From contig JAFGIK010000086.1 in assembly GCA_016929645.1 (NCBI GenBank), forward strand, positions 408 through 64,407: a stretch of 64,000 nucleotides of DNA, given 5' to 3'. The DNA is from Candidatus Dojkabacteria bacterium (GTDB taxonomy: Bacteria > Patescibacteriota > Dojkabacteria > SC72 > JAFGCJ01). Numbering within the stretch: the stretch's first letter is position 1; every line of letters begins with the position of its first letter. The position numbers and the translations under genes were made by a program. Positions 1 through 14,435 of the stretch are shown here, piece by piece. The notes beneath the pieces were generated by a model that did no database searches, had not been told where the DNA came from, and saw only the letters and a program-made list of their open reading frames with translations.

Positions 1-86
1 AAAGATCAACATCCAGCAAGACATTGAAAGACTTGCTTAAAGAGATGCATGCCTAGAAAACCTCATATAAAAACACTTCAAAAACT

Positions 87-1130
87 ATGTCTGACGTTAA
101 TTTAGACAAATATGATTCATTTAAGAAAAAGTTTTCTCTTGTTGAAAAGCCTATATCTGCTGACCAGTGGGAAGAATACAACAGACTTTATCCAATTATC
201 GAGTCAATAAAAAAACTTGAGACACTGGTAAAGCAAAAAGACGAAAACGAGAAGATCATCAATACCGAATCAGATAAAGACTTAATCTCTTTCGCCAAAG
301 AGGATACCCTACGAATTACTAAAGATATTGAAAACATACAAGAAGAGATCAAAGAATTTGAAATCGAAAATCGTAAAAGCGATCCAATAAATCTAAAAAA
401 CGCTATACTCGAGATCAGAGCTGGTGCTGGAGGTGAAGAAGCCGCTCTATTTGGAGCAGATTTAATAAGAATGTACACTCGTTTCGCTGAAAAGAAAAAT
501 TTTAAAGTAACTATATTTCATCAAAATATATCTGAAAACGGAGGAATTAAAGAAATCGTAGTAAAAATAGAAGGAAGAGGAGCATTTGGCACATTCAGAT
601 ACGAAAGCGGAGTCCACAGAGTTCAAAGAGTCCCTGTCACTGAGAGTGCAGGAAGAATTCATACCTCCACTGCATCAGTTGCTGTATTACCAGAAGCAGA
701 AAAAGTTGACCTGGAAATAAAAAATGAAGAAATAGAAATCGATGTATTGAAAGCAACAGGCCCAGGAGGTCAACACGTCAACAAAACTGAATCGACAATA
801 CGAATCACTCACCTACCCACAAATATCATTGTAACCTGCCAGGAAAGCCGATCCCAGCTTAAAAATAGAGAAATTGCAATGGAAGTATTGAGAGCAAGAT
901 TATATGAGAGAAAAATAAAAGAAGAAGCTGATAAAAGAGCCACACTTAGGAAAAATCAGATTGGAAGTGCCATGAGATCTGAAAAAATTCGTACTTACAA
1001 TTTTCCTCAAAATCGAATCACAGACCACAGGATAAAGAAATCTTGGCATAACATTCCAGCTGTACTTGATGGTGATTTAGATGAAATTGTTGAAACATTA
1101 TCCTATGAACTCAATAAAGAAGATGAATAA
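87..1130 (+). CDS. prfA: peptide chain release factor 1
   Basis: GGQ motif ([12 protein letters not shown]) and RF1-type PVT tripeptide ([17 protein letters not shown]); 347 aa. Confidence 0.95.
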
Positions 1131-2070
1131 AACTCAAAATAAAACAGAAAGATCTATAACAATAGGCCAAGCGATAAAAAAGATCGAGAAAGAGTCAAAG
1201 GACAATCTTGCAAATCCGCAAACTGATCCCATTCGTATCATAGAATCCATTATTAATACAAGCGAAACAGGAGTTATGCAAAGAATCAACGAACATTTAA
1301 CTCAGAAACAGATTGATAAATTAAACGATTCCATTAAGAGAATCCTAAATGACGAGCCAATTGAGTACATAACAGGGATATCATATTTCTGCGGGCATCG
1401 AATAAAAATATCAAAAGATGTATTAATTCCACGAGTTGAAACAGAGATGCTAGTCGAATTGGCAATCGCAGAAGCTTACCAAAAAATATATGACAAAGAC
1501 AAAGCAAATACAGAAAAAGAAAATCCAGAAAGCCTAGATTCTGATAACGGGAAAACCATAACAATAGTCGATGTTGGCACAGGGAGCGGTTGCATAATCT
1601 TATCTATTGCCTTGGGTATAACAAGTCCAGTTGACCTTAATGCAACAGAAATCTCACCCAAAGCAATTGAAATAGCAAAGGAAAACTTCACGATTCATGG
1701 GCTAGAAGAAGATATTCTATTAAAACAAGGAAATCTCCTTGCACCAATCATTGCACCCAAGTTTGCTGATATTGTTGTGGCAAATCTTCCATATATTCCA
1801 TCAATCGAAATGGAAGATTTGCCACGAAGTGTCCTCGCCTTCGAGCCCGAAACCGCATTAGATGGAGGGACTGATGGACTAAAGTATGTTAATGAGATGT
1901 TTGAACAATCAGTAAACCGGCTACGACCTGATGCAGTCATGTTGCTTGAGCTACAACCCAGTACAATAGAAGAAGCAGCTCTACTTGCAAAAAAATACTA
2001 CCCAGAGTGCAAGAAAGAGGTCATAAATGATCAATTCGATCGACAAAGATTTTTAAAAATATCTGTATAA
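1081..2070 (+). CDS. prmC: release factor glutamine N5-methyltransferase (HemK/PrmC)
   Basis: SAM-binding [10 protein letters not shown] and NLPYIP (NPPY-type) motif; immediately follows prfA (classic prfA-prmC pair). ORF overlaps the prfA end; the true start may be the ATG at 1123. Confidence 0.9.
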
Positions 2071-2075
2071 ATTAT

Positions 2076-2091
2076 AGATTTGGCCAAATCT
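2076..2091. terminator. perfect 16-bp palindrome AGATTTGGCCAAATCT between convergent prmC and htrA
   Basis: Seen directly; lies in the 125-nt gap between the convergent gene ends; weak U-tract. Confidence 0.3.
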
Positions 2092-2195
2092 GCTAAATAG
2101 GCGCTACAGAATCAAATCTCAAGTGGCATAAAAATCAAGCAACAAGAAAAATGACAAGGATTACCACCTTATACTAACTAATATTATTACTAGAC

Positions 2196-3548
2196 CTACT
2201 CCGCTTCTTCGAGAGTTACATCTACATTAATGTATTTTCCATCCCTCAATATCTTCATTTCAACCTTATCTCCAATATCATAAGTTTGAATAATGTCAGA
2301 AAATGATGTGACAATATCCTTACCATCAACCTGAGTAATAATATCACCAATCTTGATTCCGGCTTTCTCCGCAGGACTGTTTTTTGAAACACGCTTAACA
2401 TCAGCACCGTATACAAGATTGCCTTCAACAATAGCTGAATAATCAGTTACTAATGAATACTCAACCCCTAAATATGGTTGAATAAATTTACCGTTCTTTT
2501 TATATTCACTTATCCTTCCTTTTGCTTTATTTATCGGAAGCGCAAATGAAATATTGTCTGCACCGACAGTTTTAGTAAAATTAATTCCAATTACATTCCC
2601 ATCAGAATCAAGCAATGGCCCGCCAGAGTTACCAGGATTCACAGATGCATCAGTTTGAATTACATCCTCATACGTCCTGCTTGTACTCCAAAAACCCTCA
2701 CTCGTAGCAGCGGTGACAGATCGTCCAAGCCCACTAATAATTCCTGTAGTTACACTTCCTGGATAATTGCCCAGTGGTGTCCCAATAGCAACAACATACT
2801 GCCCAACAAGCAGATCATCAGAATTGCCAAGAGCCAAAGCATTAAAGTCTTTTCCATCAATCTTCAAAATCGCAATATCATTTACATTATCTCTGGCTAT
2901 ATCCTCAACTTCATATTTTTTCCCATCACTGGTAATTACGATATAGTTACTCGATGTATTTGAGACAACATGTTGATTAGTTAAAACCAGTCCAGATTCA
3001 TCAATAATAAAACCTGTTCCAATATTGTAAGAATCCGAAGTATTTTCTGAATCCTTAATTGCTACAGTAACAACTCCATCCTTGGTTTCATCAACAACAT
3101 CTATAACAAAATTCTCTTCAACAACAACATTTCTTATCGTGTTTTTAGAATTATTTTCAGAATTTGATGCTTTACTAGAAGAATCAGGATCTTCACGATC
3201 ATAAGTATCTTCGATAAAATTATGATCCTCTAGCCAATGTCTAACAACAGGGACAAATGTTGCACCAATATAGACCCCTATAAAAAGCATTATCGTTAAG
3301 GAAATAATATAGCCAAAGAGCCTTATATACTGGACAATTTTGAACCTCGGCTCTTTATTATCTTTATTATCAGTTTTGTCAGGTTTTTTAGAACCTTGTA
3401 TTTTATTATCCTTTGCAATATTAACCTCACCTTTCGGAGTCATCTGGTGATTTTTGTACATACTACGAGATTCTTGATTATGAGAATGTTCATTATCTTT
3501 TTGATCAGTTTTGTTAAATTTCTTATCTTCCATCAATAAAGCCATCAT
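2196..3548 (-). CDS. htrA: HtrA/DegP-family periplasmic serine protease with C-terminal PDZ domain, N-terminal membrane anchor
   Basis: Trypsin-like catalytic motif VNPGNSGGPLLD, His/Asp region (TNQHVV...DIAILKI), PDZ-like C-terminus; hydrophobic N-terminal segment. Confidence 0.9.
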   Translation of the reverse strand: MMALLMEDKKFNKTDQKDNEHSHNQESRSMYKNHQMTPKGEVNIAKDNKIQGSKKPDKTDNKDNKEPRFKIVQYIRLFGYIISLTIMLFIGVYIGATFVPVVRHWLEDHNFIEDTYDREDPDSSSKASNSENNSKNTIRNVVVEENFVIDVVDETKDGVVTVAIKDSENTSDSYNIGTGFIIDESGLVLTNQHVVSNTSSNYIVITSDGKKYEVEDIARDNVNDIAILKIDGKDFNALALGNSDDLLVGQYVVAIGTPLGNYPGSVTTGIISGLGRSVTAATSEGFWSTSRTYEDVIQTDASVNPGNSGGPLLDSDGNVIGINFTKTVGADNISFALPINKAKGRISEYKKNGKFIQPYLGVEYSLVTDYSAIVEGNLVYGADVKRVSKNSPAEKAGIKIGDIITQVDGKDIVTSFSDIIQTYDIGDKVEMKILRDGKYINVDVTLEEAE

Positions 3549-3607
3549 AAAAATTTAATTTTTTAATCAAGAAAGTTGATACTTGTGGGTTCTTAAGAAA
3601 CAAAAAA

Positions 3608-4072
3608 TTACTCCCCAATTAGATTAACAACAATATCAGTTGTACTTGTTTTTGTAGGACAACTAATTACTAACTCAAGAGGATATTTACCCAGCTCTCT
3701 TAAAGGTTGAGAAAGTACAATATCTAAGGAAATAGAAGAGTTATCAGCTATTTTCATCTTCTTCATAATTACCTGAAGAACCTCATCTTTATCCACTGAA
3801 CCAAATAAGCGGCCACCACTACTTGCCTTAGCTTTTATCTGGAAAACTTTATTCTTGACAGATTGGGCTATTTTTATTACCTCATCAGCAGCCACAAGCG
3901 ATTGCTCTTCCTCCTGCTTCGCCGTCTTCTTGGCCTGAGCCAAAACATTATCAGAAGCAACAGCTGCAATCTTTCGTGGGATTAGAAAATTTACGGCATA
4001 TCCAGATTTAATTTCTACAATATCACCCTTCTTCCCAATTCCCTTACAGTCTTCTATCAAAACTACTTTCAT
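3608..4072 (-). CDS. rplI: 50S ribosomal protein L9
   Basis: N-terminus MKVVLIEDCKGIGKKGDIVEIKSGYAVNFLIPRKIA is the canonical L9 signature. Confidence 0.93.
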   Translation of the reverse strand: MKVVLIEDCKGIGKKGDIVEIKSGYAVNFLIPRKIAAVASDNVLAQAKKTAKQEEEQSLVAADEVIKIAQSVKNKVFQIKAKASSGGRLFGSVDKDEVLQVIMKKMKIADNSSISLDIVLSQPLRELGKYPLELVISCPTKTSTTDIVVNLIGE

Positions 4073-4076
4073 AGTA

Positions 4077-5363
4077 TTAAATTTTAGAATTTAGATACTT
4101 GAGAGCCTCATCCATCTGAGGATCATCCCCATCTTTAAACTCCTGATCACTTATGTCAATTTTCTTATCAGGTTCAATAACATTATCAGGGTTCAGCCAG
4201 GTACCATCAGGCAATAACCACTTAAAAATAGTAATATGCAAACTTGATCCATCTGTAAAATCAACAATATCCTGAGCAGTACCTTTGCCATAAGTTTCCT
4301 CACCGATGATATATGCCCTATCATTTTGTTGCATAGCTCCTGCGAAAATTTCAGAAGCAGACGCGCTACCTCCATTAACGAGCACTACCACAGGAATATC
4401 CAGCATATTTCCGTCTCTGTCTACCGTAAATGAAGTCTGATCTCCTTCGCGATCTTCTTGTTTTACTACAACGGTACCAGAATCAAGGAAATCACCAGCT
4501 GCCCACACTGCAGCACTGAAATACCCACCTGGGTTTCCTCGAAGATCAATAACCAAAGCCTTAGGCTTTTCTTTTTTAACATCCTCAATAACTGAATCCC
4601 ATTTTTGTTCCCAAGCTACAAGCGAACTTTCAGTAAATCTATCTACGTCAACGACAGCAATATCCCCTTCCATTCCTTCAAAGGTAATACTTGGAGCCTT
4701 AATTTCATCACGAGTTACTACAATATCCTCTGTTTCACTACCATCTTTATGTAATACTGTAATTTCTACATCAGTGCCTTTTTCTCCTCTTAACAAAGCG
4801 ACAACTTCATACAAACCTTTCCCTGTAACATCATTGCCATCTACTTTTAATACTTTATCTCCAGATTTCAAACCTGCCTCTATCGCAGGCGATCCCTCCA
4901 ATGGGGAAATGATAACAACATAACCATCTTCATAACCCATTTCAGCACCAATTCCTTCAAACTTGCCTTGATTTCCATCCTTGTATTGCTGAGTTTCCTC
5001 TGGTGTTAAATAAACAGTTGCAGGATCATCCAATCCGTCAACCATACCCTTAATTGCACCATAATACATTTCCTGTTGGTCCAAATCTTTGTCAACATAT
5101 TGTGTAGCCAAAGTCTCCCAAACTTCCCAAAATCTATCAAAATCTAACTCTGTTACATCATTATTTTCTGTTTTTCCTACAATCTTATATAGATTTGAAA
5201 CGTCATTACTTTTTGACCCTCCCCAAACTTTTCCAGAAAAAAAACCTACTGTAAAAACACAGAAAATAACGAGAACAAGCCCTATAAAATTAAGAAATCT
5301 ATTAATACTTAATGAACTTACGTCCTTATTCGCATTAATTGAAGAAACCTTAGCTTTAACCAT
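4077..5363 (-). CDS. ctpA: carboxyl-terminal processing protease (S41 family, PDZ domain)
   Basis: S41 motif LVIDLRGNPGGYFSAA, PDZ region (GIGAEMGYEDGYVVIISPLEGSPAIEAGLKSGDKVLKVDG), N-terminal TM anchor. Confidence 0.88.
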   Translation of the reverse strand: MVKAKVSSINANKDVSSLSINRFLNFIGLVLVIFCVFTVGFFSGKVWGGSKSNDVSNLYKIVGKTENNDVTELDFDRFWEVWETLATQYVDKDLDQQEMYYGAIKGMVDGLDDPATVYLTPEETQQYKDGNQGKFEGIGAEMGYEDGYVVIISPLEGSPAIEAGLKSGDKVLKVDGNDVTGKGLYEVVALLRGEKGTDVEITVLHKDGSETEDIVVTRDEIKAPSITFEGMEGDIAVVDVDRFTESSLVAWEQKWDSVIEDVKKEKPKALVIDLRGNPGGYFSAAVWAAGDFLDSGTVVVKQEDREGDQTSFTVDRDGNMLDIPVVVLVNGGSASASEIFAGAMQQNDRAYIIGEETYGKGTAQDIVDFTDGSSLHITIFKWLLPDGTWLNPDNVIEPDKKIDISDQEFKDGDDPQMDEALKYLNSKI

Positions 5364-5467
5364 ATCTATTAATAAAATACTAATTTAAAATCATACTTAA
5401 CATTAGTATTATACCACAGGGTAAAAATAGTGGATTATCAAAAACTAGTAAAATAAATCATAATCTA

Positions 5468-7132
5468 TCAAAGATATTGTGAAGGATTTTGAATAAAATC
5501 CCGTCTAAGCATACGTTGTAGCTGAATCATTTTTCCTAGTAAAGTTGCTCCTGCGGTTCTTGATCGACAAATTTTCTTACCTGAAAAGAATTCATCTAGA
5601 CCGCAAATTCGATCCTGCTCAGATCTTAATTTCAAAAACTCTCCTGTACCTCGCCGTACTCGATTAAGTCTATAACTATTTCTTGATTTAGCTATTCCGA
5701 TAGCTTTCTGTAAGCTACTTTGAGGATATCCTGCTTTGAGATATTCAATGGAGGCAATTGTAGATAAGGCTTCAATCTCAGTATCCATAATTAATTTAGA
5801 AACACGGTATCTAACTGATTCGTCCTCATTATATATTTGATCTAAAGAATATCCAGGATAAAATAACTGCCATAATTCTAATCTGCTATCAGAACAAAAT
5901 TTTTGAACAAATCCTAATTCTTCATTAAAAAGGTTTAGAACTTGATCAACACTCAATCTCTCAAGATCTGAATAACCTTGTTCAGGATAGTTATCTTGAA
6001 TGTATCCGAGAAGAAGTCTTGAGTATCCATCAAATAGCAGCTTATTGAGTCTGAGTTTTTCTGCACTTTTATTTTCAGGATTATCCAGAACATTGGCAGA
6101 AATAAACATCATTTCCAACATATAGTTATCAAACACTTGAGTTTTTACACGATCAGTCATCAAATATTGCAATGAGTGACCCGTACCCTCATAATCTTCA
6201 TCGTACCATCCATACTTATCAAGCCAGTAATCAGCAAAACCTTTAAATTCTGATTCATTTTGACGTCTCCACTCATTCGCAATAACAGTCATCTGTTCAT
6301 TAGAAAGAGAATAATTAGCCACAAACTGTTCATCTATCTGACTCATACAAGTCTCATCCCATTCACACACACGCGTCAAGTATTCACTCATTGTAGAAAT
6401 ATCTATTCCAATCATGCTGATTACAGGGATATCCTGATCCGGTGTTGCCCCTGTTATATGAACTGGGGCAACTTTTGATTCTTGAGAAAACATAGTATCC
6501 AATGGATTGATTCCAGATAAATCGTCGGTCAAGAAGGGAGAAGGATCATCATAAAACAATAAATATTGTAAACCCTCGACAGTAAGAACACCTTCGTTTG
6601 CAGGTGATGCCGGAATAAGATAGAAAAGCCCATTTGTGGATCTTACGGAATAGATAGCGATCGATTGATCAGGGATACGATTATCCAAAGACGAAAGCAG
6701 ATCAGCTGGATTTTCAATTCCTGCCTCAGTCATCATACGGACATAATGCTTGCGGACTGCAGACATAGCGAAATCAATATCAACAAGATTTGCTCCTTCA
6801 CCAATTCTGAATTTATACATATTTACACCACTATCCCTGGTTTCCGATTCTACTTTTATTTCTGTACCAGATGTAATCACTTCTGAGTGCTGAATTTCAT
6901 ATCGAGGTGGAAATTTGGACATATGATCTTCATTAAATGCAGGCTGACCAAATTGGTTTAATACTATATCGCCAGCTTTACTTGATATACCTGAAGAAAG
7001 AGGAGATGTTGTAGGTATTTTATCTCCTGTAGAGCTTGTATCAGGTGTACGATTATTTGGCGTACTACAGGCGGTAAATGATGTAATTGCTGCAGCTAGA
7101 ACTAATCTGATTCCCTTACTTTTAAGATCCAT
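5468..7132 (-). CDS. predicted lipoprotein of unknown function (554 aa)
   Basis: Signal peptide with lipobox LAAAITSFTAC followed by a Ser/Thr/Pro-rich linker; no recognisable catalytic motif. Confidence 0.6.
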   Translation of the reverse strand: MDLKSKGIRLVLAAAITSFTACSTPNNRTPDTSSTGDKIPTTSPLSSGISSKAGDIVLNQFGQPAFNEDHMSKFPPRYEIQHSEVITSGTEIKVESETRDSGVNMYKFRIGEGANLVDIDFAMSAVRKHYVRMMTEAGIENPADLLSSLDNRIPDQSIAIYSVRSTNGLFYLIPASPANEGVLTVEGLQYLLFYDDPSPFLTDDLSGINPLDTMFSQESKVAPVHITGATPDQDIPVISMIGIDISTMSEYLTRVCEWDETCMSQIDEQFVANYSLSNEQMTVIANEWRRQNESEFKGFADYWLDKYGWYDEDYEGTGHSLQYLMTDRVKTQVFDNYMLEMMFISANVLDNPENKSAEKLRLNKLLFDGYSRLLLGYIQDNYPEQGYSDLERLSVDQVLNLFNEELGFVQKFCSDSRLELWQLFYPGYSLDQIYNEDESVRYRVSKLIMDTEIEALSTIASIEYLKAGYPQSSLQKAIGIAKSRNSYRLNRVRRGTGEFLKLRSEQDRICGLDEFFSGKKICRSRTAGATLLGKMIQLQRMLRRDFIQNPSQYL

Positions 7133-7262
7133 AATTTATGTTCAAAAAAATTACGCCAAACATTTGTCATTATAACAAAACAAAGGGAAAATTGGGAATT
7201 CCATAGCTGAAATATACTAATATTGGGGCATCACAAGAATACTTCGGTCATTAACACACAAC

Positions 7263-8333
7263 CTAAATCAACACAAAACTATTTTCGGAAAGTAATACTT
7301 TCCTTCCACTATCAAGAATAACTTGTATCAAATCTTCATTATCCATAATGCTAATTACCTTGGCAGTATAGCCCCAAAAAGGAAGATCAAGAATTTTCAC
7401 AAAGTCTCCAATTTTAACAAGCCTCACAGGACAAATATCGACATTATTAAAATCTGGAATATTTACAAAAAAACTTCGCTTCTTTATATTCTCTCGATCG
7501 TCATGATAAAGCACAATCGATTCCCTATCAACATCAAGATAAGTGAACTTATCCTTATGACTGGATAATAAATCTAATAACACAGCATTTATTGGTATCG
7601 TACCCCACCCTTCAGTAACAAATATTGGGATAACTTCATCCTTTATACCGTCAAATTCGGCACGATCAACAGCACCTACAATTATGCCGGAAACATCATT
7701 TTCTACAGCAGCTTCATAAAGCTTGAACGTCAGTTTTCGACCAAGTACAAGAATCTTGCCCTTACATGATTCATCAATGTCGGATGTAGAGTACATGGAG
7801 TTTCCATCTTTTATTAATTTCAATTTCCCTCCCTTACTTTCACCCACACACGTAAAAGCCTTGGCTACAAAACCATTTACTGAAAAACTGATACTTCGTC
7901 GATAGTTGCTTAGAGGTAGGATATTGAAGACCTTGCCATAGATACCTGCTTTCACACTTGAATATTCAGAAGGAGCCATGATATCAACAAAACCAGAAGA
8001 CAGACGATCAAGAGCAACCTTCCCATTATATTGAGAAAAAGCAATTTTCTCTGCAAGACCAAAGGAAACGGAGCGACGCGCAATTACTTCTCCCTTATCA
8101 ATAATCTCCCCTTGATCTTTGAGTAAATATTTGCCAACTTCATCGACATTCACACCCAAATCTTTTGGTAGATTTATTGACTGCAATACTTCAGAAGATT
8201 CTCCTTCAAAGATTAACGAATCTGGACTAATCTCATCACCCTTTGATACAACACAGCTAGCAGATCCAGAAAAATCTATTGAGATTTCTTCATCAGTTGA
8301 ATAGTAAATTTTCTTTTCTTCAACCCCAATCAT
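7263..8333 (-). CDS. hypothetical protein with KOW-like C-terminal motif (356 aa)
   Basis: C-terminal IGDFVKILDLPFWGYTAKVISI resembles the KOW motif (GDxVxVxxGPFxGxxGxV). Start overlaps the upstream gene stop by about 4 nt, indicating co-transcription. Confidence 0.5.
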   Translation of the reverse strand: MIGVEEKKIYYSTDEEISIDFSGSASCVVSKGDEISPDSLIFEGESSEVLQSINLPKDLGVNVDEVGKYLLKDQGEIIDKGEVIARRSVSFGLAEKIAFSQYNGKVALDRLSSGFVDIMAPSEYSSVKAGIYGKVFNILPLSNYRRSISFSVNGFVAKAFTCVGESKGGKLKLIKDGNSMYSTSDIDESCKGKILVLGRKLTFKLYEAAVENDVSGIIVGAVDRAEFDGIKDEVIPIFVTEGWGTIPINAVLLDLLSSHKDKFTYLDVDRESIVLYHDDRENIKKRSFFVNIPDFNNVDICPVRLVKIGDFVKILDLPFWGYTAKVISIMDNEDLIQVILDSGRKVLLSENSFVLI

Positions 8334-8337
8334 TTGA

Positions 8338-9696
8338 TTAATACGAAAGGTTTAAATTATTTAACCACCTTGAAAGGCGACTTCTATTTTGCATTATTCC
8401 AGGTCCATAAACAATTGGAGATTCACGACAATCAATCACAAGCTTATCGCAAGGATTTTTAAAACTCAAAGAAAATTCAGAATTTGATCCATTAAGAGAA
8501 GGGAAGAATGCCCCATTCTGCGGACGAAATTTTACATACTCAGCTTCATGAATATTCATCGTATAAAAATCGCCAAACACTCCAAGTATTGGCTCCATCG
8601 AAGGTGTTCTTTTGTCATCCGGAAGTAAAGTCAACTCCTTATATGAAATATTATTATCTTCTTTAAAGTTAATATGACCTTTGAAGCATACTGAACCTAT
8701 ATTAGAATCATTTCCACCCTCACATGTAAGATATTTAATAGAAGGATTAAAAAGTCGCTTTATCGAACAAATAAAATCTTTCTTTAACTCTGGATTCAAC
8801 ACAACAGATCCATTTATAAAATTCTCGTCATTATCGAAAATGACATCAAAATTTCCTCTAAGTTGCAAACCGTCAATTACTGATAGGAAAATCAATTCGT
8901 TCGAAAGAATTTTTGTTAAATCTCCAGTGATCAATAAAGCAGCTCTCAATCCATCTCTACCAAGTTTATTAAATTCGCTATCTTTAATTTTTATCAATTT
9001 TAAAGTCAATAAAGAACGAAAAATATCTTTAACATCAACGGAAGAACAGTTTAATACGGGATCCTTCATGACATTATGCAAGAAATTATCCAATTCCTGA
9101 CTATTTATATTCACGGAAAGAGTATTAGAAATCAACGGTAGAAGATTATCTATATCAGAAACAAACTTCGAATGATACTCCTTGATACTATCGACAACAG
9201 AATCTTGCGCATTAGTGTTATTACCGAGATGAAAAACATCAATATCATCCCAACCTAAATCAACCACAACCAGGTCATCCACTTCAAGAAGCTCTCTTAT
9301 TCTGATAATCTCTTTTGATTTCGAACTATCATTGTACAAAACAGATCTTACTCCAAGAACATTTGAATAAAAATCTTTTTGATAAAACTTAGGACATACA
9401 AGCAAAAATGCTTCAGTGACGCCTAAGCCATCCTCCTGCATAGGCCGTATCAAGGAATTGTCCTCATTGATAAACTTCCAATCAACCTCGCGAACCCAAT
9501 TCTTTAGAAATTTAGCACAGAGACTATCAAGCAATGACAATGAAAAATCTGTGGGAATTCTGACATAATCAGACGTAACAAGAGAATCTCCTGTTACATA
9601 ATCAGAAATTATCAGAGAAAATCTTACGCTTACATCAGTTACTGCAACAATAAGTCTATTATCCTGTCTCTCAGTTGGATATTTGGGCAGATTCAT
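8338..9696 (-). CDS. hypothetical protein, possibly a divergent actin/Hsp70-fold (ASKHA) ATPase-like protein (452 aa)
   Basis: VVVDLGWDDIDVFH matches DxGxxxxD phosphate-2 spacing (compare DIGGGTTD in MreB/FtsA). N-terminal IVAVTDVSVRFSL resembles a degenerate phosphate-1 motif. LLITGDLTK resembles an adenosine motif. Pattern-level call only. Confidence 0.35.
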   Translation of the reverse strand: MNLPKYPTERQDNRLIVAVTDVSVRFSLIISDYVTGDSLVTSDYVRIPTDFSLSLLDSLCAKFLKNWVREVDWKFINEDNSLIRPMQEDGLGVTEAFLLVCPKFYQKDFYSNVLGVRSVLYNDSSKSKEIIRIRELLEVDDLVVVDLGWDDIDVFHLGNNTNAQDSVVDSIKEYHSKFVSDIDNLLPLISNTLSVNINSQELDNFLHNVMKDPVLNCSSVDVKDIFRSLLTLKLIKIKDSEFNKLGRDGLRAALLITGDLTKILSNELIFLSVIDGLQLRGNFDVIFDNDENFINGSVVLNPELKKDFICSIKRLFNPSIKYLTCEGGNDSNIGSVCFKGHINFKEDNNISYKELTLLPDDKRTPSMEPILGVFGDFYTMNIHEAEYVKFRPQNGAFFPSLNGSNSEFSLSFKNPCDKLVIDCRESPIVYGPGIMQNRSRLSRWLNNLNLSY

Positions 9697-9748
9697 AGCA
9701 AGAATACCATCCCTATATAATTAATCTCAGTCGACAAACTTAATACAC

Positions 9749-10096
9749 CTATTTTGTCAGAGAAACATAAGGAAGTAAAGCCATATATCTTGCATTTTTT
9801 ATAGCTCTGGCTAGCTGTCTTTGATGCTTTGCACACATACCTGATTTATCACGTCCAATAATTTTACCTCTTACAGAGGTATATTTCTTAAGCTGATATA
9901 CATCTTTGTAGGTGATATATTGAACGCCAGCTTCACATAAAGGACATTTCAAATCAACATCTACTCTTTTTCGACGCCTCGTCCTCTTTGTAGGTTCATC
10001 ACCAAGAATAGACTTATCGTCAAAGACATCAGTCAAAGCTTTACCTTCTTTTTTTTCCATTAAGATATCTGTTTTTGGTTCTTTTATATCTGGCAT
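9749..10096 (-). CDS. rpsR: 30S ribosomal protein S18
   Basis: RRRKRV...CPLC...YKDV..LKKY.S.RGKI..R..SG.CAKHQR.LA.AIK.AR signature. Confidence 0.93.
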   Translation of the reverse strand: MPDIKEPKTDILMEKKEGKALTDVFDDKSILGDEPTKRTRRRKRVDVDLKCPLCEAGVQYITYKDVYQLKKYTSVRGKIIGRDKSGMCAKHQRQLARAIKNARYMALLPYVSLTK

Positions 10097-10124
10097 AGTA
10101 ATTTTATCCTTATTTTATAATCAT

Positions 10125-10661
10125 TTAAAATGGAAGTTCATCCTCTAACGGGTCGTTACTTTTGTCATCATCTGACACCTCTTCGGATTTTGAAGCTTCT
10201 TTTGATTTGTCATCAGAAACTTCAGCCTTTTCTTCACTAACAGGTGCATCAACTGTTGATCCAGAGTTTGCAACAGGCTCAGCTCCTTCACCATTACCTG
10301 CTCCGCCACCTACTCCTGACTTCCCTTTACTGTCAAGAAGAATCATCTCATTTAATTTGATTTCTGTTCGATACTTGGTCTCACCTGAATCATCTTCCCA
10401 AGTCCTAGTCCGAAGTTCACCTTCTACGTAGACTTTCATACCCTTGGCAAGTAGCTGATAACAAACTTCAGCCATTTTATTCCAAGCAACGACATTGTGG
10501 AATTCAGCCTCTTCTTTAATATTACCCTCAGCATCTTTCCAACTTCTGTTAGTTGCTACACCAAATGTACACATACCAGCACCACTTGATGTATAACGAA
10601 TCTCAGGATCTCTAGTAAGATTTCCTATCAATATAACCTTATTTAATGATCGAGTAGCCAT
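10125..10661 (-). CDS. ssb: single-stranded DNA-binding protein
   Basis: OB-fold N-terminus (NKVILIGNLTRDPEIRYT), Gly-rich linker, acidic C-terminal tail ending DELPF. Confidence 0.93.
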   Translation of the reverse strand: MATRSLNKVILIGNLTRDPEIRYTSSGAGMCTFGVATNRSWKDAEGNIKEEAEFHNVVAWNKMAEVCYQLLAKGMKVYVEGELRTRTWEDDSGETKYRTEIKLNEMILLDSKGKSGVGGGAGNGEGAEPVANSGSTVDAPVSEEKAEVSDDKSKEASKSEEVSDDDKSNDPLEDELPF

Positions 10662-10745
10662 TAAACTAAAAAATAAATTTATATTATATTACTAAGTATA
10701 TCTGTCAATAATTAAAAAATATTAAAACACCTCGAAAAGCAAGAA

Positions 10746-11090
10746 TTAAATATCTATAACCTTTTTATTAAGATTCTTCCCTTTTTCCTCAGGACTATTT
10801 ATCCTTGTTATCAAGTATCTCAAAACCTCTGTAATTCTTGATAATGCAACCTCAATTTCGCTTAAGCCTGAAGATGGAATTTTAAGTTCGTATACAATAT
10901 AATATCCCTCTTCATGCTTCTTTATAGGGTAAGACAAATATCGTTTGCCCCAAACATCTGCACCAACAACATCCCCGCCAAGTTTTTTAACAGCATCTAG
11001 GATTATTGTATGTGCATTTTTTCTAACATCATCTGGAAGAAGTGGCTTAAAAATAACCATCAATTCATATGCCTTCAAATTCTTTTCCAT
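10746..11090 (-). CDS. rpsF: 30S ribosomal protein S6
   Basis: MEKNLKAYELMVIFKP... S6 signature; begins the rpsF-ssb-rpsR operon. Confidence 0.9.
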   Translation of the reverse strand: MEKNLKAYELMVIFKPLLPDDVRKNAHTIILDAVKKLGGDVVGADVWGKRYLSYPIKKHEEGYYIVYELKIPSSGLSEIEVALSRITEVLRYLITRINSPEEKGKNLNKKVIDI

Positions 11091-11259
11091 ATTTTATTCT
11101 TTCATATTTTTATCAATTTATGTCACACCAGTATCTGAAAGGCTGCAGAAATAATAACAGAAATGTAATTTTATATCAAGGGAAATGGGATATATTGGCA
11201 CTTTACTGTTAAAAAATTTAACGATCTATTGCGAAAAAAATACCGTATTTCTCTTAATA

Positions 11260-12378
11260 TCATGCAGCACTGTGAATCAGAATATAATCACCATCCTGGA
11301 TAAGGTACTCCTTACCCTCAACCCTCACCAACCCTTTTTCTTTTGCATTATTCCAACCACCAGAATCAATCATATCTTCGACATTAACAACCTCTGCTCT
11401 AATAAAATTTTGTTCAAAATCAGTATGGATTACTCCAGCAGCCTCTTTAATAGTAGCTCCACTGGCGATAGACCATGACCTTGCATCTTTTTCGTTTCCA
11501 GTAAAAAACGATAATAAGTCTAATCTCCTGTACGCTAGCTTAATAATTTCTTCTACCCCTTTGTAATCATCAATCATAGAAAGAAATTCTTTTTTATCAT
11601 CAGCCTGATAGGAATCAAGTTCACCTTCAAGTTTGCAATCTACTGTTAATATAAAATTGCACTCATCCTCAGGTATATTCTTTTTAAGATCACTTATCCA
11701 TTGTTCAAGCTCAGGTTCATTTACTCCGTTTTTTACATTTAGTAAATAAAATGCCTTTTTGTCAGTCAATAGCCAGAGATCTTTAACAAATTCCCGCTCT
11801 TCTTCAGTTAAATCAATTGATACCACAGGAATCTCATTATTTAGACCCACCGAAACTTTTTCGAGCCCGGAAAGTTGAATTTTCAGGTCATCCGTCATTC
11901 CAGATTTTGTCATTTTTCTTATTTCGTTTAGTTTTTTTTCAACAGTCTCCATATCTTTAAACATCAATTCCGATCTTACAATCTTCAAATCATCAACAGG
12001 ATTAATTTTATCGTAAACATGAGTCACATTCTCACTTTTAAATGATCGAAGAACATACATGATAGCGTTCACTTCACGAATATGACCAAGAAATTGATTT
12101 CCAAGCCCTTCCCCTTTTGATGCACCTTTAACGAGTCCTGCAATATCTACAAAGGTCATTGCAGAAGGAATTTTCTCTGCCGAGTTATAAAATGCAGCAA
12201 GCTTTTCGAGTCTTTTGTCAGGAATCTTCACAACCCCAACATTTTTGTCAATCGTACAAAATGGATAATTCTCTGCAGGAACTGCACTTTTGGTCAATGC
12301 ATTAAAAATCGTCGATTTCCCCGAATTTGGCAATCCTACAATCCCAATAGATAAATTGTGAGATCTTGTTACTGACAT
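11260..12378 (-). CDS. ychF: ribosome-binding ATPase YchF (Obg-family GTPase)
   Basis: P-loop IGIVGLPNSGKSTIFNALT, a G3 DxxG motif (VDIAG), C-terminal TGS-like domain; 372 aa. Confidence 0.9.
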   Translation of the reverse strand: MSVTRSHNLSIGIVGLPNSGKSTIFNALTKSAVPAENYPFCTIDKNVGVVKIPDKRLEKLAAFYNSAEKIPSAMTFVDIAGLVKGASKGEGLGNQFLGHIREVNAIMYVLRSFKSENVTHVYDKINPVDDLKIVRSELMFKDMETVEKKLNEIRKMTKSGMTDDLKIQLSGLEKVSVGLNNEIPVVSIDLTEEEREFVKDLWLLTDKKAFYLLNVKNGVNEPELEQWISDLKKNIPEDECNFILTVDCKLEGELDSYQADDKKEFLSMIDDYKGVEEIIKLAYRRLDLLSFFTGNEKDARSWSIASGATIKEAAGVIHTDFEQNFIRAEVVNVEDMIDSGGWNNAKEKGLVRVEGKEYLIQDGDYILIHSAA

Positions 12379-12587
12379 ATATAATATGTATAGATATTAA
12401 TGTATAAAATTTGCTTAATTCATATTAACAGTTAATACAAATTGCCTAATTTTACTATAAAATTAACGTTTACGTAAGAAAGTATACTATTGATGTATCC
12501 TGACTTGTTAAAAATTGTCATTTTTTAGCGAAAATCCTCGTAATATAGGCCGTTTCCTCACATAAATATACACTTATCTGCTAATAT

Positions 12588-14435
12588 ATGTACATGCGAT
12601 TGGAAATCAAAGCTAAAAAGTTACCGCTACAGTTACTAACCTTTGTATTACTGGCTTTATTAATTATCCCTTTATTCAGGACAAAGGCTTATGCATCAGA
12701 TTTTCTTATAACAATAAACAGAACATACACATATGAACCAGAACAAGAACTAATTCATATAGAAGAAACACGAAATATTCAAAGTTTTTCTAACGCATAC
12801 TATATTAAACAAGATTCTACCGAATCCTTTGTTATACAAAACTTCAAAGAGGGTGTTTCTCAAGAGGAACTTGATATAAAAAAGAACTCAATCTCAGTTT
12901 CAAGCCCAACCTACGGTGAACTTAGCCATAAGGTAGAGCAACAAGGAGATGAGCTAATTGTGACGGCAAGATATCCAACTGACGTTACGGCAGACAAATC
13001 TGTAAGTTTCACTCTCGAATACGATTCAAACGAGTTAATTGAAAATATTGGAAAGATTACAAATATTTATATTCCAGGCTTCAAAGAGGATCAAGAAGAT
13101 ATCACCATAAATCCAGAAAACGGTTTATCAACAGAAGTTTCATATAATACAATTTTAAAGATACCCCAAAACGAAGATCTCGTTATACACTCTGCACCAG
13201 AACCAACAAAGATTTACAATGATTCAGGGTTCAAGGTATATGAATATTCGACAGATATCCTAAAAGGAAAATCCGTATGGTATCAAATGGGAAATGAGCA
13301 ACTCTATTTCTTCAAAATAGTACAACCTACAACAAAGACAGACAACTTGACCCCAGAAAATATTAATTTTCTATCAAAAAATGAATATCAAGTTGTACTT
13401 CCCAGAGAATATGAAGAAACAAACCAGAAAGTTTACTTTTCAAAACTAGACCCCTACCCTAATGAAATTTTTACAGATAATGAGGGAAACCTCATTGCTA
13501 AATTCCTTGTCGACGCTAATAAATCTTCACAGATTGTTATTGAAGGTTATATAACGATAAATTTGAATAAAAATAGCGAAGATTACCCCAAAGATGTACC
13601 TTCGAATGTAGATATAAGTGAAATTAATACATTTTCAGATGTAGATAAATATTTACAGCCATCTGAGTACTGGGAAGTAGATAACTCTCAAATACAAGAT
13701 AAAGCTCAGGAACTAAAAGGTGACAAATCAAATATTATGGAAATCTTAAAAGCTGACTATAAATTTATAATTGAATCCATCGACTATGATGATTTTAAAT
13801 TTGGTGACGCAAACACGAGACAAGGAGCTGTCGCTACTCTTAACGGAGGCAATTCAGTATGCATGGAATATTCAGATTTACTTATAGCAATAAGTCGCGC
13901 GCAGGGTATCCCTGCGCGCGCAGCCTACGGTTACGGCTTTGACCCTAAACTTGCTGCAGACAATCAAGAAGAGCACCAATGGGTTCAGGTATGGATCCCA
14001 GACTATGGCTGGCTAACAATTGACCCCACTTGGGGTGAAACCGGACGCGAATTTTTTGGCAAAGACATTGACCATGTCCTATGGTATGTTGCAGCGGAAC
14101 ATCCAAACATCCCAGCTCCTATTGAAGTTTTATCTTCTACTAAAAATGTTAGTATCAAACCAATCCAGATTGAATTTTATGCAGTTGAAGAAATCTCAAA
14201 TCCCAATGATCTCATGGACTTGAATGAATTAAAAAACGAAATTGAAAACTCAAGTACCAATGAGACAACAAAAATCATACAAGTCAGTCCACTTGGAAGA
14301 AGCTTTGCGATAGTAGCACCAAGCTGCATTGGCGGAATTATATTAATCTTATGTTTAAGAATTATTTCAAGATTGATTTCTAGAAAATATGCTAAAAAAA
14401 AGGACTTTGATAATTTGATAAAAAAGAAAACATAA
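12588..14435 (+). CDS. transglutaminase-like cysteine protease domain surface protein (signal peptide, C-terminal TM anchor)
   Basis: Cys-His-Asp core: GGNSVCMEYSDL...EEHQWVQVWIPDYGWLTIDPTWGE. N-terminal signal sequence. C-terminal hydrophobic segment plus KK-rich tail. Confidence 0.75.
   Translation: MYMRLEIKAKKLPLQLLTFVLLALLIIPLFRTKAYASDFLITINRTYTYEPEQELIHIEETRNIQSFSNAYYIKQDSTESFVIQNFKEGVSQEELDIKKNSISVSSPTYGELSHKVEQQGDELIVTARYPTDVTADKSVSFTLEYDSNELIENIGKITNIYIPGFKEDQEDITINPENGLSTEVSYNTILKIPQNEDLVIHSAPEPTKIYNDSGFKVYEYSTDILKGKSVWYQMGNEQLYFFKIVQPTTKTDNLTPENINFLSKNEYQVVLPREYEETNQKVYFSKLDPYPNEIFTDNEGNLIAKFLVDANKSSQIVIEGYITINLNKNSEDYPKDVPSNVDISEINTFSDVDKYLQPSEYWEVDNSQIQDKAQELKGDKSNIMEILKADYKFIIESIDYDDFKFGDANTRQGAVATLNGGNSVCMEYSDLLIAISRAQGIPARAAYGYGFDPKLAADNQEEHQWVQVWIPDYGWLTIDPTWGETGREFFGKDIDHVLWYVAAEHPNIPAPIEVLSSTKNVSIKPIQIEFYAVEEISNPNDLMDLNELKNEIENSSTNETTKIIQVSPLGRSFAIVAPSCIGGIILILCLRIISRLISRKYAKKKDFDNLIKKKT

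Follow-up and report, generated by a model that had tools for sequence, protein, structure and literature searches.

A degenerate ASKHA-fold protein, probably of GlmL descent, encoded with a KOW-domain partner in the S6-SSB-S18-L9 gene cluster of Dojkabacteria

The stretch analysed here (the window) covers 64,000 nucleotides (nt) of contig JAFGIK010000086.1 from a Candidatus Dojkabacteria bacterium and contains, on the minus strand directly downstream of rpsR, a gene for a 452-amino-acid (aa) protein that we refer to as X, followed by a gene for a 356-aa partner that we refer to as Y. X is identical to the NCBI hypothetical protein JW887_05555 (Candidatus Dojkabacteria). An initial annotation of this DNA had proposed a possible degenerate actin/Hsp70-fold (ASKHA) protein directly after rpsR and had quoted three peptides as remnants of a nucleotide-binding site; the open reading frame (ORF) was confirmed at that place, separated from rpsR by a spacer of 52 nt, and all three peptides are present in its translation at residues 16–28 (IVAVTDVSVRFSL), 143–156 (VVVDLGWDDIDVFH) and 254–262 (LLITGDLTK). 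No terminator-like site was found in the rpsR-X spacer on that strand, and promoter and terminator scans were indistinguishable from shuffles. The features of the locus are collected in Table 1.

Analysis of related loci from bacteria of the Candidate Phyla Radiation (CPR), obtained by a locus search from a 16-sequence alignment, placed Y directly after X in all 16 loci, and the gene order (ychF)-rpsF-ssb-rpsR-X-Y-ctpA was found in each of the 15 loci with enough flanking sequence. The genes rplI and htrA lie downstream of ctpA in related loci and likewise in the window. This gene order indicates that X-Y-ctpA is nested in an ancestral rpsF-ssb-rpsR-rplI cluster. Y of the window starts 4 nt beyond the stop codon of X, and the X-Y gaps in relatives include -1, -4, +3 and -16 nt; gaps this short or overlapping point to translational coupling and support the co-transcription with a KOW-motif protein that had been suggested at the outset. 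Identity to the window proteins across loci was 21–29% for X and 22–44% for Y, in comparison to 42–64% for CtpA, 47–64% for YchF and 50–86% for S18, so that X, under relaxed constraint, evolves faster than any other gene of the cluster.

Table 1. Genes, domains and motifs of the X-Y locus (window coordinates unless a locus is named).
Feature	Position	Strand	Evidence
Gene X, 452-aa protein with predicted ASKHA fold	8338..9696	(-)	ORF, ATG start, TAA stop; AlphaFold2 (AF2) model and Foldseek
X residues 1-140, minimal first RNase-H-like half (ASKHA domain I)	9277..9696	(-)	secondary structure of AF2 model
Phosphate-1 site remnant IVAVTDVSVRFSL, residues 16-28, beta1-beta2 hairpin	9613..9651	(-)	model position
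X residues 141-305, second RNase-H-like half (domain II) with helical insertion at about 179-245	8782..9276	(-)	secondary structure; colinear with residues 332-468 of long GlmL-like proteins
Phosphate-2 site remnant VVVDLGWDDIDVFH, residues 143-156, first hairpin of domain II	9229..9270	(-)	strands 141-147 and 151-157
Adenosine-motif equivalent LLITGDLTK, residues 254-262	8911..8937	(-)	G258 conservation; aligned to GlmL LLVGSGGVLSH
VIDGLQLRG, residues 273-281, most conserved stretch of the family	8854..8880	(-)	conservation; aligned to mIDAFlPEG (D446, G452) of long GlmL-like proteins
X residues 306-452, C-terminal beta-rich domain and final helix	8341..8781	(-)	secondary structure; hhalign
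C-terminal motif D422-x-R424-xx-P427-xx-Y430-G431-P432-...-N437-...-W444	8365..8433	(-)	invariant or nearly so in 58 sequences
Gene Y, 356-aa partner (hypothetical protein JW887_05550)	7263..8333	(-)	ORF; directly downstream of X in 16/16 CPR loci
Y N-terminal beta-rich region, barrel-sandwich-hybrid (lipoyl/biotinyl-like) signals	7809..8333	(-)	weak matches
Y central alpha/beta domain (swivelling beta/beta/alpha or PA-like), invariant TEGWG just after	7494..7781	(-)	profile, Foldseek, conservation
Y C-terminal KOW (SH3-like) domain	7266..7424	(-)	Foldseek and profile against PDB
rpsR (ribosomal protein S18), directly upstream of X	9749..10096	(-)	Pfam Ribosomal_S18, E 2.1e-21
ssb	10125..10661	(-)	Pfam SSB, E 3.8e-37
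rpsF (S6)	10746..11090	(-)	synteny with annotated loci
ctpA-like S41 peptidase, conserved neighbour downstream of X-Y	4077..5363	(-)	Pfam Peptidase_S41, E 2.6e-44; synteny
rplI (L9), closes the rpsF-ssb-rpsR-rplI cluster	3608..4072	(-)	ORF; L9 Pfam annotation at same position in loci L001 and L003
Small 110-127-aa protein	L017 8656-9003; L020 4616-4999; L028 2757-3089; L030 1325-1657		

When 1.84 billion cluster representatives (50% identity level) were searched exhaustively with HMMER, 82 relatives of X were obtained at E<=1e-3, of which 44 fell at E<=1e-10; a word-indexed homologue search had recovered only three, and the exhaustive search of representatives was required. The relatives are nearly all 430–480 aa long and, where they carry names, are assigned to Dojkabacteria, candidate division WS6 or generic Patescibacteria. 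The match to P0037 (2628 aa), which is counted among the 82, was rejected as a false positive resting on a 48-residue chance match around DLGWDDID. Its 545-aa repeats, each with LRSLGWTDIDLL, matched the DLGWDDID region of X five times and thereby produced a spurious E of 1.8e-11, which calls for caution in trusting multi-repeat hits. Fifty-eight sequences of the family were assembled into the alignment (A3) that underlies all conservation counts and the AF2 model. Six residues are invariant in this alignment (N208, D275, D422, R424, Y430 and N437) and a further 11 are nearly so (W73, D224, R227, G258, G276, G281, D288, P427, G431, P432 and W444). With these relatives, invariant residues and a fixed synteny, X is a real and conserved protein. 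No match was found between X and defence-system or phage families.

The AF2 model of X had a mean predicted local distance difference test score (pLDDT) of 87.9 and a predicted template modelling score (pTM) of 0.90, with the five models ranging from 86.8 to 87.9 in pLDDT. Its first half consists of beta strands 11–19, 23–32 and 37–46, helix 53–71, strands 95–100 and 116–120 and helix 123–137, and the second half repeats this theme with strands 141–147, 151–157 and 171–177, helices, strand 252–257, helix 266–277, strand 282–287 and helix 292–300. The C-terminal part forms a seven-stranded beta domain (319–422) and a final helix (434–447). The predicted structure thus shows two tandem RNase-H-like halves with an extra C-terminal beta domain, the order of its elements agrees with the beta-beta-beta-alpha-beta-alpha-beta-alpha arrangement of ASKHA halves, and the duplicated core expected of the proposed ASKHA fold is present in the model. 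Foldseek comparison of the model with the PDB gave 159 matches at E<=1e-3, and the top 50 were all ASKHA proteins aligned over 260–425 columns that covered both halves. The top matches included the Ppx/GppA structure 1t6c (E 6.6e-7), ROK glucokinases, Mlc, hexokinases, ParM (1mwm), NTPDase1, EutJ and BT_3980. Among the viral models of BFVD, Hsp70 proteins came first, with TM-scores of about 0.3 that indicate likeness at the level of the fold only, followed by RuvC-like and terminase RNase-H folds.

Foldseek TM-scores of 0.27–0.42, with about 10% identity to X in the structural matches, are low, and the subfamily of X is therefore not assignable from structure. These values, together with the lack of a sequence-level family match, could be taken to mean that structure prediction produced a spurious likeness to ASKHA proteins and that the true fold of X is a different one. 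We consider this extremely improbable, as all five models built on the 58-sequence alignment score highly, the searches of the PDB and of BFVD each lead to ASKHA or RNase-H-like folds, and an independent profile-profile match leads to proteins of PF13941, a member of the actin-ATPase clan (see below).

The phosphate-1, phosphate-2 and adenosine peptides of X all lie at the correct topological positions in the model, in keeping with the assignments first made for them. The bare pattern DxGxxxxD is expected about 0.18 times by chance in a protein of the composition of X and is not significant alone, so that the case for this motif rests on its structural context, the hairpin that opens the second RNase-H-like half. 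Greedy hhalign additionally placed VVVDLGWDDIDV of X opposite VGVDIGGATTDV, the phosphate-2 loop of GlmL-family proteins. Within the first 60 residues, a canonical phosphate-1 motif (DxG[GSTA][STG]) is absent from all 58 relatives, and the phosphate-1 columns (residues 15–26) are without a conserved Asp or Gly across the family. A canonical phosphate-2 motif (DxGG[GSTA][ST]) is likewise found in 0 of 58; X of the window has DLGWDD at this site, and DLGWD is conserved in a close subgroup of the family only. Column 146 holds D in 29, N in 12 and E in three of the 58 sequences and column 148 holds N in 26, D in 22 and G in seven, which gives a family pattern of D/N-L-N/D. At the adenosine motif the single retained glycine, G258, is kept in 57 of the 58. 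Overall, these motifs argue against nucleotide binding and hydrolysis by X, which appears degenerate at the ATP site and is probably catalytically inactive, as the initial annotation had considered possible.

The partner Y gave no significant match to Pfam, NCBIfam, PADLOC or PHROGs, and its structure model (pLDDT 81) falls into three parts. The C-terminal KOW domain superposes by Foldseek on the NusG C-terminal domain, the Spt5 KOW domain and uL24 with a root-mean-square deviation of 1.1–2 Å over about 54 residues, and the profile of Y matches Spt5 KOW in the PDB at E 6.4e-5. The central domain gave a profile match to RraA (E 8e-4) and resembles PA domains weakly by Foldseek. Weak RnfC_N and Biotin_lipoyl Pfam matches were obtained for the N-terminus in homologues, along with biotin/lipoyl matches in the PDB at E of about 0.02. 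A search of a 5.8-billion-protein database identified distant Y homologues in Cloacimonadota, Marinimicrobia and metagenomic bacteria (23–29% identity, E 1e-10 to 2e-14).

These distant homologues give access to the origin of X. At seven of eight independent non-CPR loci the gene directly upstream of the Y homologue encodes a 593–632-aa protein of PF13941 ('MutL', GlmL family), matched by Pfam at E 1e-122 to 1e-130. At the exception, locus L019, the Y homologue P0100 (7001–8128) lies between an AIR-synthase-related (ThiL/SelD-like) gene and a 273-aa gene, without a GlmL-like gene. The long GlmL-like proteins score 205–239 bits against an NCBIfam GlmL equivalog cut-off of 475 and therefore represent a paralogous subfamily. 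They keep intact ASKHA motifs, namely ILATDCGSTTTK, VGVDIGGATTD and LLVGSGGVLSHAP (GSGGVLSHAP), and continue past the Pfam domain with a C-terminal extension (about 120 aa) that ends in GIIIDARGR...P...RV..L..W. No solved relative of these proteins was found in the PDB by sequence search.

Comparison by hhalign of the X family with four long GlmL proteins gave a probability of 77.6% and E 1.9e-5, and with six of them (alignment A8) the match rose to a probability of 92.5% and E 4.7e-7 over 250 colinear columns, in which residues 187–452 of X correspond to residues 332–604 of the long proteins. Taken piece by piece, the C-terminal extension alone gave E 4e-6 and domain II gave E 0.023 in the correct register. 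Reversed and column-shuffled controls stayed at E>=0.03 with scores of 24 or less, in comparison to 46.7 for the comparable four-protein run. The residues that are invariant in both families align with one another (G258 with G428, D275 with D446, G281 with G452, D288 with D459, D422 with D572, R424 with R574 and W444 with W595), and a C-terminal hhhD-x-R...W pattern is common to both (LVIDCRES...RWL in X, GIIIDARGR...AWS in the long proteins). Additionally, the Y homologue P0092, which is intermediate in sequence (31% identical to Y of the window), has upstream of it a gene fragment that ends in RGRPLKLP..., the C-terminal signature of the long GlmL-like proteins. Taken together, the homologous partner, the identical order of the two genes, the significant match between profiles and the invariant residues common to both families indicate that X is a divergent, shortened descendant of the long GlmL-like subfamily.

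Measured against these relatives, domain I of X has shrunk by about 140 residues (about 140 aa, in comparison to about 280 aa in the long GlmL proteins), and both glycine-rich phosphate loops have been lost; the SSAGGG and SGGxDGG segments are absent from X. It keeps the adenosine glycine and N208, D224, R227, D275, D288, D422, R424, Y430, N437 and W444 in domain II and the C-terminal domain. This pattern bears on whether X might still be an active nucleotide-dependent enzyme or chaperone, which would use non-canonical residues such as the semi-conserved D/N146, N/D148 and G258 to bind ATP or a different phosphorylated ligand and would drive Y as the intact long GlmL-like proteins presumably do. 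The near-complete retention of the adenosine glycine and the polar residues that persist at the phosphate-2 hairpin would fit such an activity, and the invariant D275, D288, D422 and R424 could form a new site. However, both glycine-rich loops are missing from every family member, half of domain I with its two glycine-rich segments is gone, and no gene of the cluster evolves faster, for which reasons we judge an active X unlikely.

Alternatively, X and Y could assist a coenzyme-B12 enzyme as its reactivase or accessory factor, as has been proposed for canonical GlmL with glutamate mutase. Diol dehydratase reactivase is composed of an ASKHA ATPase and a 'swivelling' domain, and a swivelling-type domain is found in Y; the descent of X from the GlmL family, whose NCBIfam name is 'methylaspartate mutase accessory protein GlmL', points the same way. 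Against this, the long GlmL-like proteins fall far short of the equivalog cut-off, no mutase gene lies beside them in any locus examined or beside X in the 15 CPR loci, where X is surrounded by rpsF, ssb, rpsR, Y, ctpA and rplI, and the ATP that such a factor requires would have no site in X. A reactivase role is thus highly improbable. A cytoskeletal actin-like protein of the ParM, MreB, FtsA or PilM type, either polymerising or tethering a division or pilus machine, is also very unlikely. ParM (1mwm) and EutJ do occur among the Foldseek matches, and CPR bacteria have reduced cytoskeletal gene sets. However, neither X nor its 58 relatives match the Pfam models for MreB_Mbl, FtsA, PilM or ParM, Ppx/GppA, glucokinases and NTPDase match the structure equally well or better, the ATP motifs that filaments need are lost, and profile homology favours the GlmL branch. 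None of the four alternatives weighed here (prediction artefact, active enzyme, reactivase or cytoskeletal protein) is favoured.

We therefore regard X, with somewhat more confidence than doubt, as a shrunken, fast-evolving and probably ATPase-dead ASKHA subunit of GlmL lineage that serves an X-Y module in a structural or regulatory capacity. X would no longer hydrolyse ATP and would probably lack canonical ATP binding. It may instead be a structural or regulatory subunit of a putative tight complex with Y, kept stoichiometric through translational coupling, in which the conserved surface of domain II and the C-terminal domain would be the working surface that binds Y or a client. Through its KOW domain, Y might dock onto RNA polymerase, nucleic acid or a ribosomal protein, in the way such domains act in NusG, Spt5 and uL24, and X and Y would be co-expressed with S6, SSB, S18 and L9 to serve a housekeeping role in Dojkabacteria.

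Several observations weigh against this assignment, in addition to the low TM-scores given above. X has no significant match in Pfam, NCBIfam, PADLOC or PHROGs, and hence none to the Pfam or NCBIfam ASKHA models; a Pfam scan of all 58 relatives gave no significant match to PF13941 or to other ASKHA models, and PDB sequence searches returned no match, whether the query was X by itself or the family profile. The N-terminal halves of X and the long GlmL-like proteins gave no hhalign signal, which limits the homology to the C-terminal 60% of X. The evidence for lost ATP binding comes from the motifs, and the presence of D, N or E at column 146 in 76% and of N or D at column 148 in 83% of the family could mark a residual metal or ligand site. 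KOW docking and the link to translation are argued from domain analogy and gene position.

Outside the CPR, the long GlmL-like protein and Y are often accompanied by a small protein of 110–127 aa (32–39% identical) with a hydrophobic segment, PAIxFIESLKPLNFIASQAMVFFxPI, that belongs to no Pfam family. This may be a third, possibly membrane-associated, component of the system. Some modules of long GlmL-like protein and Y also lie near CdsA (twice), PAP2 (once) and DUF6754 (twice), at L017 4352–5140 and 9043–10155, L022 2248–3075 and 6578–7195 and the P0107 locus. These lipid- and membrane-related neighbours could hint at a membrane or lipid role of the ancestral system, or could reflect shared ancestry of the loci alone. 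A tblastn search of the window recovered no counterpart of CdsA, PAP2, DUF6754, STAS or the small protein. In a broader and more speculative interpretation, which we hold to be unlikely as a whole, the X-Y pair would be a reduced, ATP-independent remnant of a widespread system made of a GlmL-type ATPase, a barrel/swivel/KOW protein and the small hydrophobic protein, captured in the S6-SSB-S18-L9 operon and turned into a new ribosome- or transcription-associated factor that docks through the KOW domain of Y.

Other features of the window were observed around the cluster. A 554-aa ORF lies between Y and ctpA (5468–7132, minus strand) and has a lipoprotein-like N-terminus, LVLAAAITSFTAC. It has no match in Pfam, NCBIfam, PADLOC or PHROGs and no homologue in the 15 syntenic loci, and it looks like a strain-specific insertion; locus L001 has an unrelated 324-aa gene at the same spot. 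S18 of the window is 115 aa long, with an N-terminal extension of about 55 residues and a CPLC pair plus one further Cys (KCPLCEAG...GMCAKHQ), a composition that suggests a zinc-binding ('C+') form. Upstream of ychF, a divergent gene (12588–14435, plus strand) encodes a 615-aa protein with a C-terminal hydrophobic segment, and Transglutaminase-core proteins (PF01841) occupy the position of this protein in loci L003 and L004. GC skew was negative in 31 of 32 consecutive 2-kb windows across positions 1–64000 (cumulative value -6.2) and the long ORFs are mostly on the minus strand in the stretches 1–5400 and 5000–13000; a single replichore appears to contain the whole window, most of whose genes point the same way.

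Our analysis assigns a fold and an ancestry to a family of hypothetical proteins that has no Pfam or NCBIfam model and is conserved throughout Dojkabacteria/WS6, and X offers a clear case of an ASKHA enzyme turned into a probable pseudo-ATPase with its partner retained. It also exposes, in several phyla, a broader unstudied module of long GlmL-like ATPase and KOW protein, with or without the small hydrophobic protein, that is open to study in tractable organisms. A literature search on PF13941, GlmL, TIGR01319, DUF6754, ASKHA proteins in Patescibacteria and the X family found nothing relevant in the searchable library. The finding settles no long-standing question and overturns no current knowledge.

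In comparison to known systems, X is closest to the long GlmL-like proteins of Cloacimonadota, Marinimicrobia and other bacteria, with which it shares domain II, the C-terminal extension, the NxxxN, adenosine G, IDxxxxxG, D, DxR and W positions, and a homologous Y directly downstream. Unlike X, which is about 150 aa shorter, these proteins have canonical ATP motifs and a full-size domain I, are usually found near the small hydrophobic protein that the window lacks, and are not encoded in a ribosomal-protein cluster. The affinity to actin and Hsp70 in the initial annotation thus held for the ASKHA fold, whereas the nearest kin of X belong to the GlmL/MutL (PF13941) branch and not to actin, MreB, FtsA or Hsp70.

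Placement of X on the branch of GlmL/MutL (PF13941, TIGR01319, NF040745) comes by transitive homology through the long GlmL-like proteins. X itself has no match to these three models at E<=1 and its 58 relatives have none at E<=0.01; X also differs from GlmL/MutL in a C-terminal beta domain that lies outside the 450-position PF13941 model, in the absence of ATP motifs and mutase neighbours, and in having no association with glutamate mutase (glmS/glmE) or ornithine-degradation genes in the 15 loci. Without the model match, phosphate motifs and mutase context of a GlmL, X is filed as a degenerate variant and not as a GlmL. With the ASKHA enzymes and related proteins (Ppx/GppA 1t6c, ROK glucokinases, Mlc, NTPDase, ParM, EutJ and Hsp70) X shares the duplicated RNase-H-like core and the positions of the motif remnants, but it differs from them in its absent glycine-rich loops and extra C-terminal beta domain. 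X has no match to the Hsp70/DnaK model PF00012, and its C-terminal beta domain matches the extension of the long GlmL-like proteins instead. Although their partners and pathways differ from those of X and the likeness is one of description only, TsaB/YeaZ and the cytoplasmic domain of GspL/EpsL are non-catalytic actin-like folds that serve as partner or scaffold subunits, which is the kind of role that our working model proposes for X beside Y.

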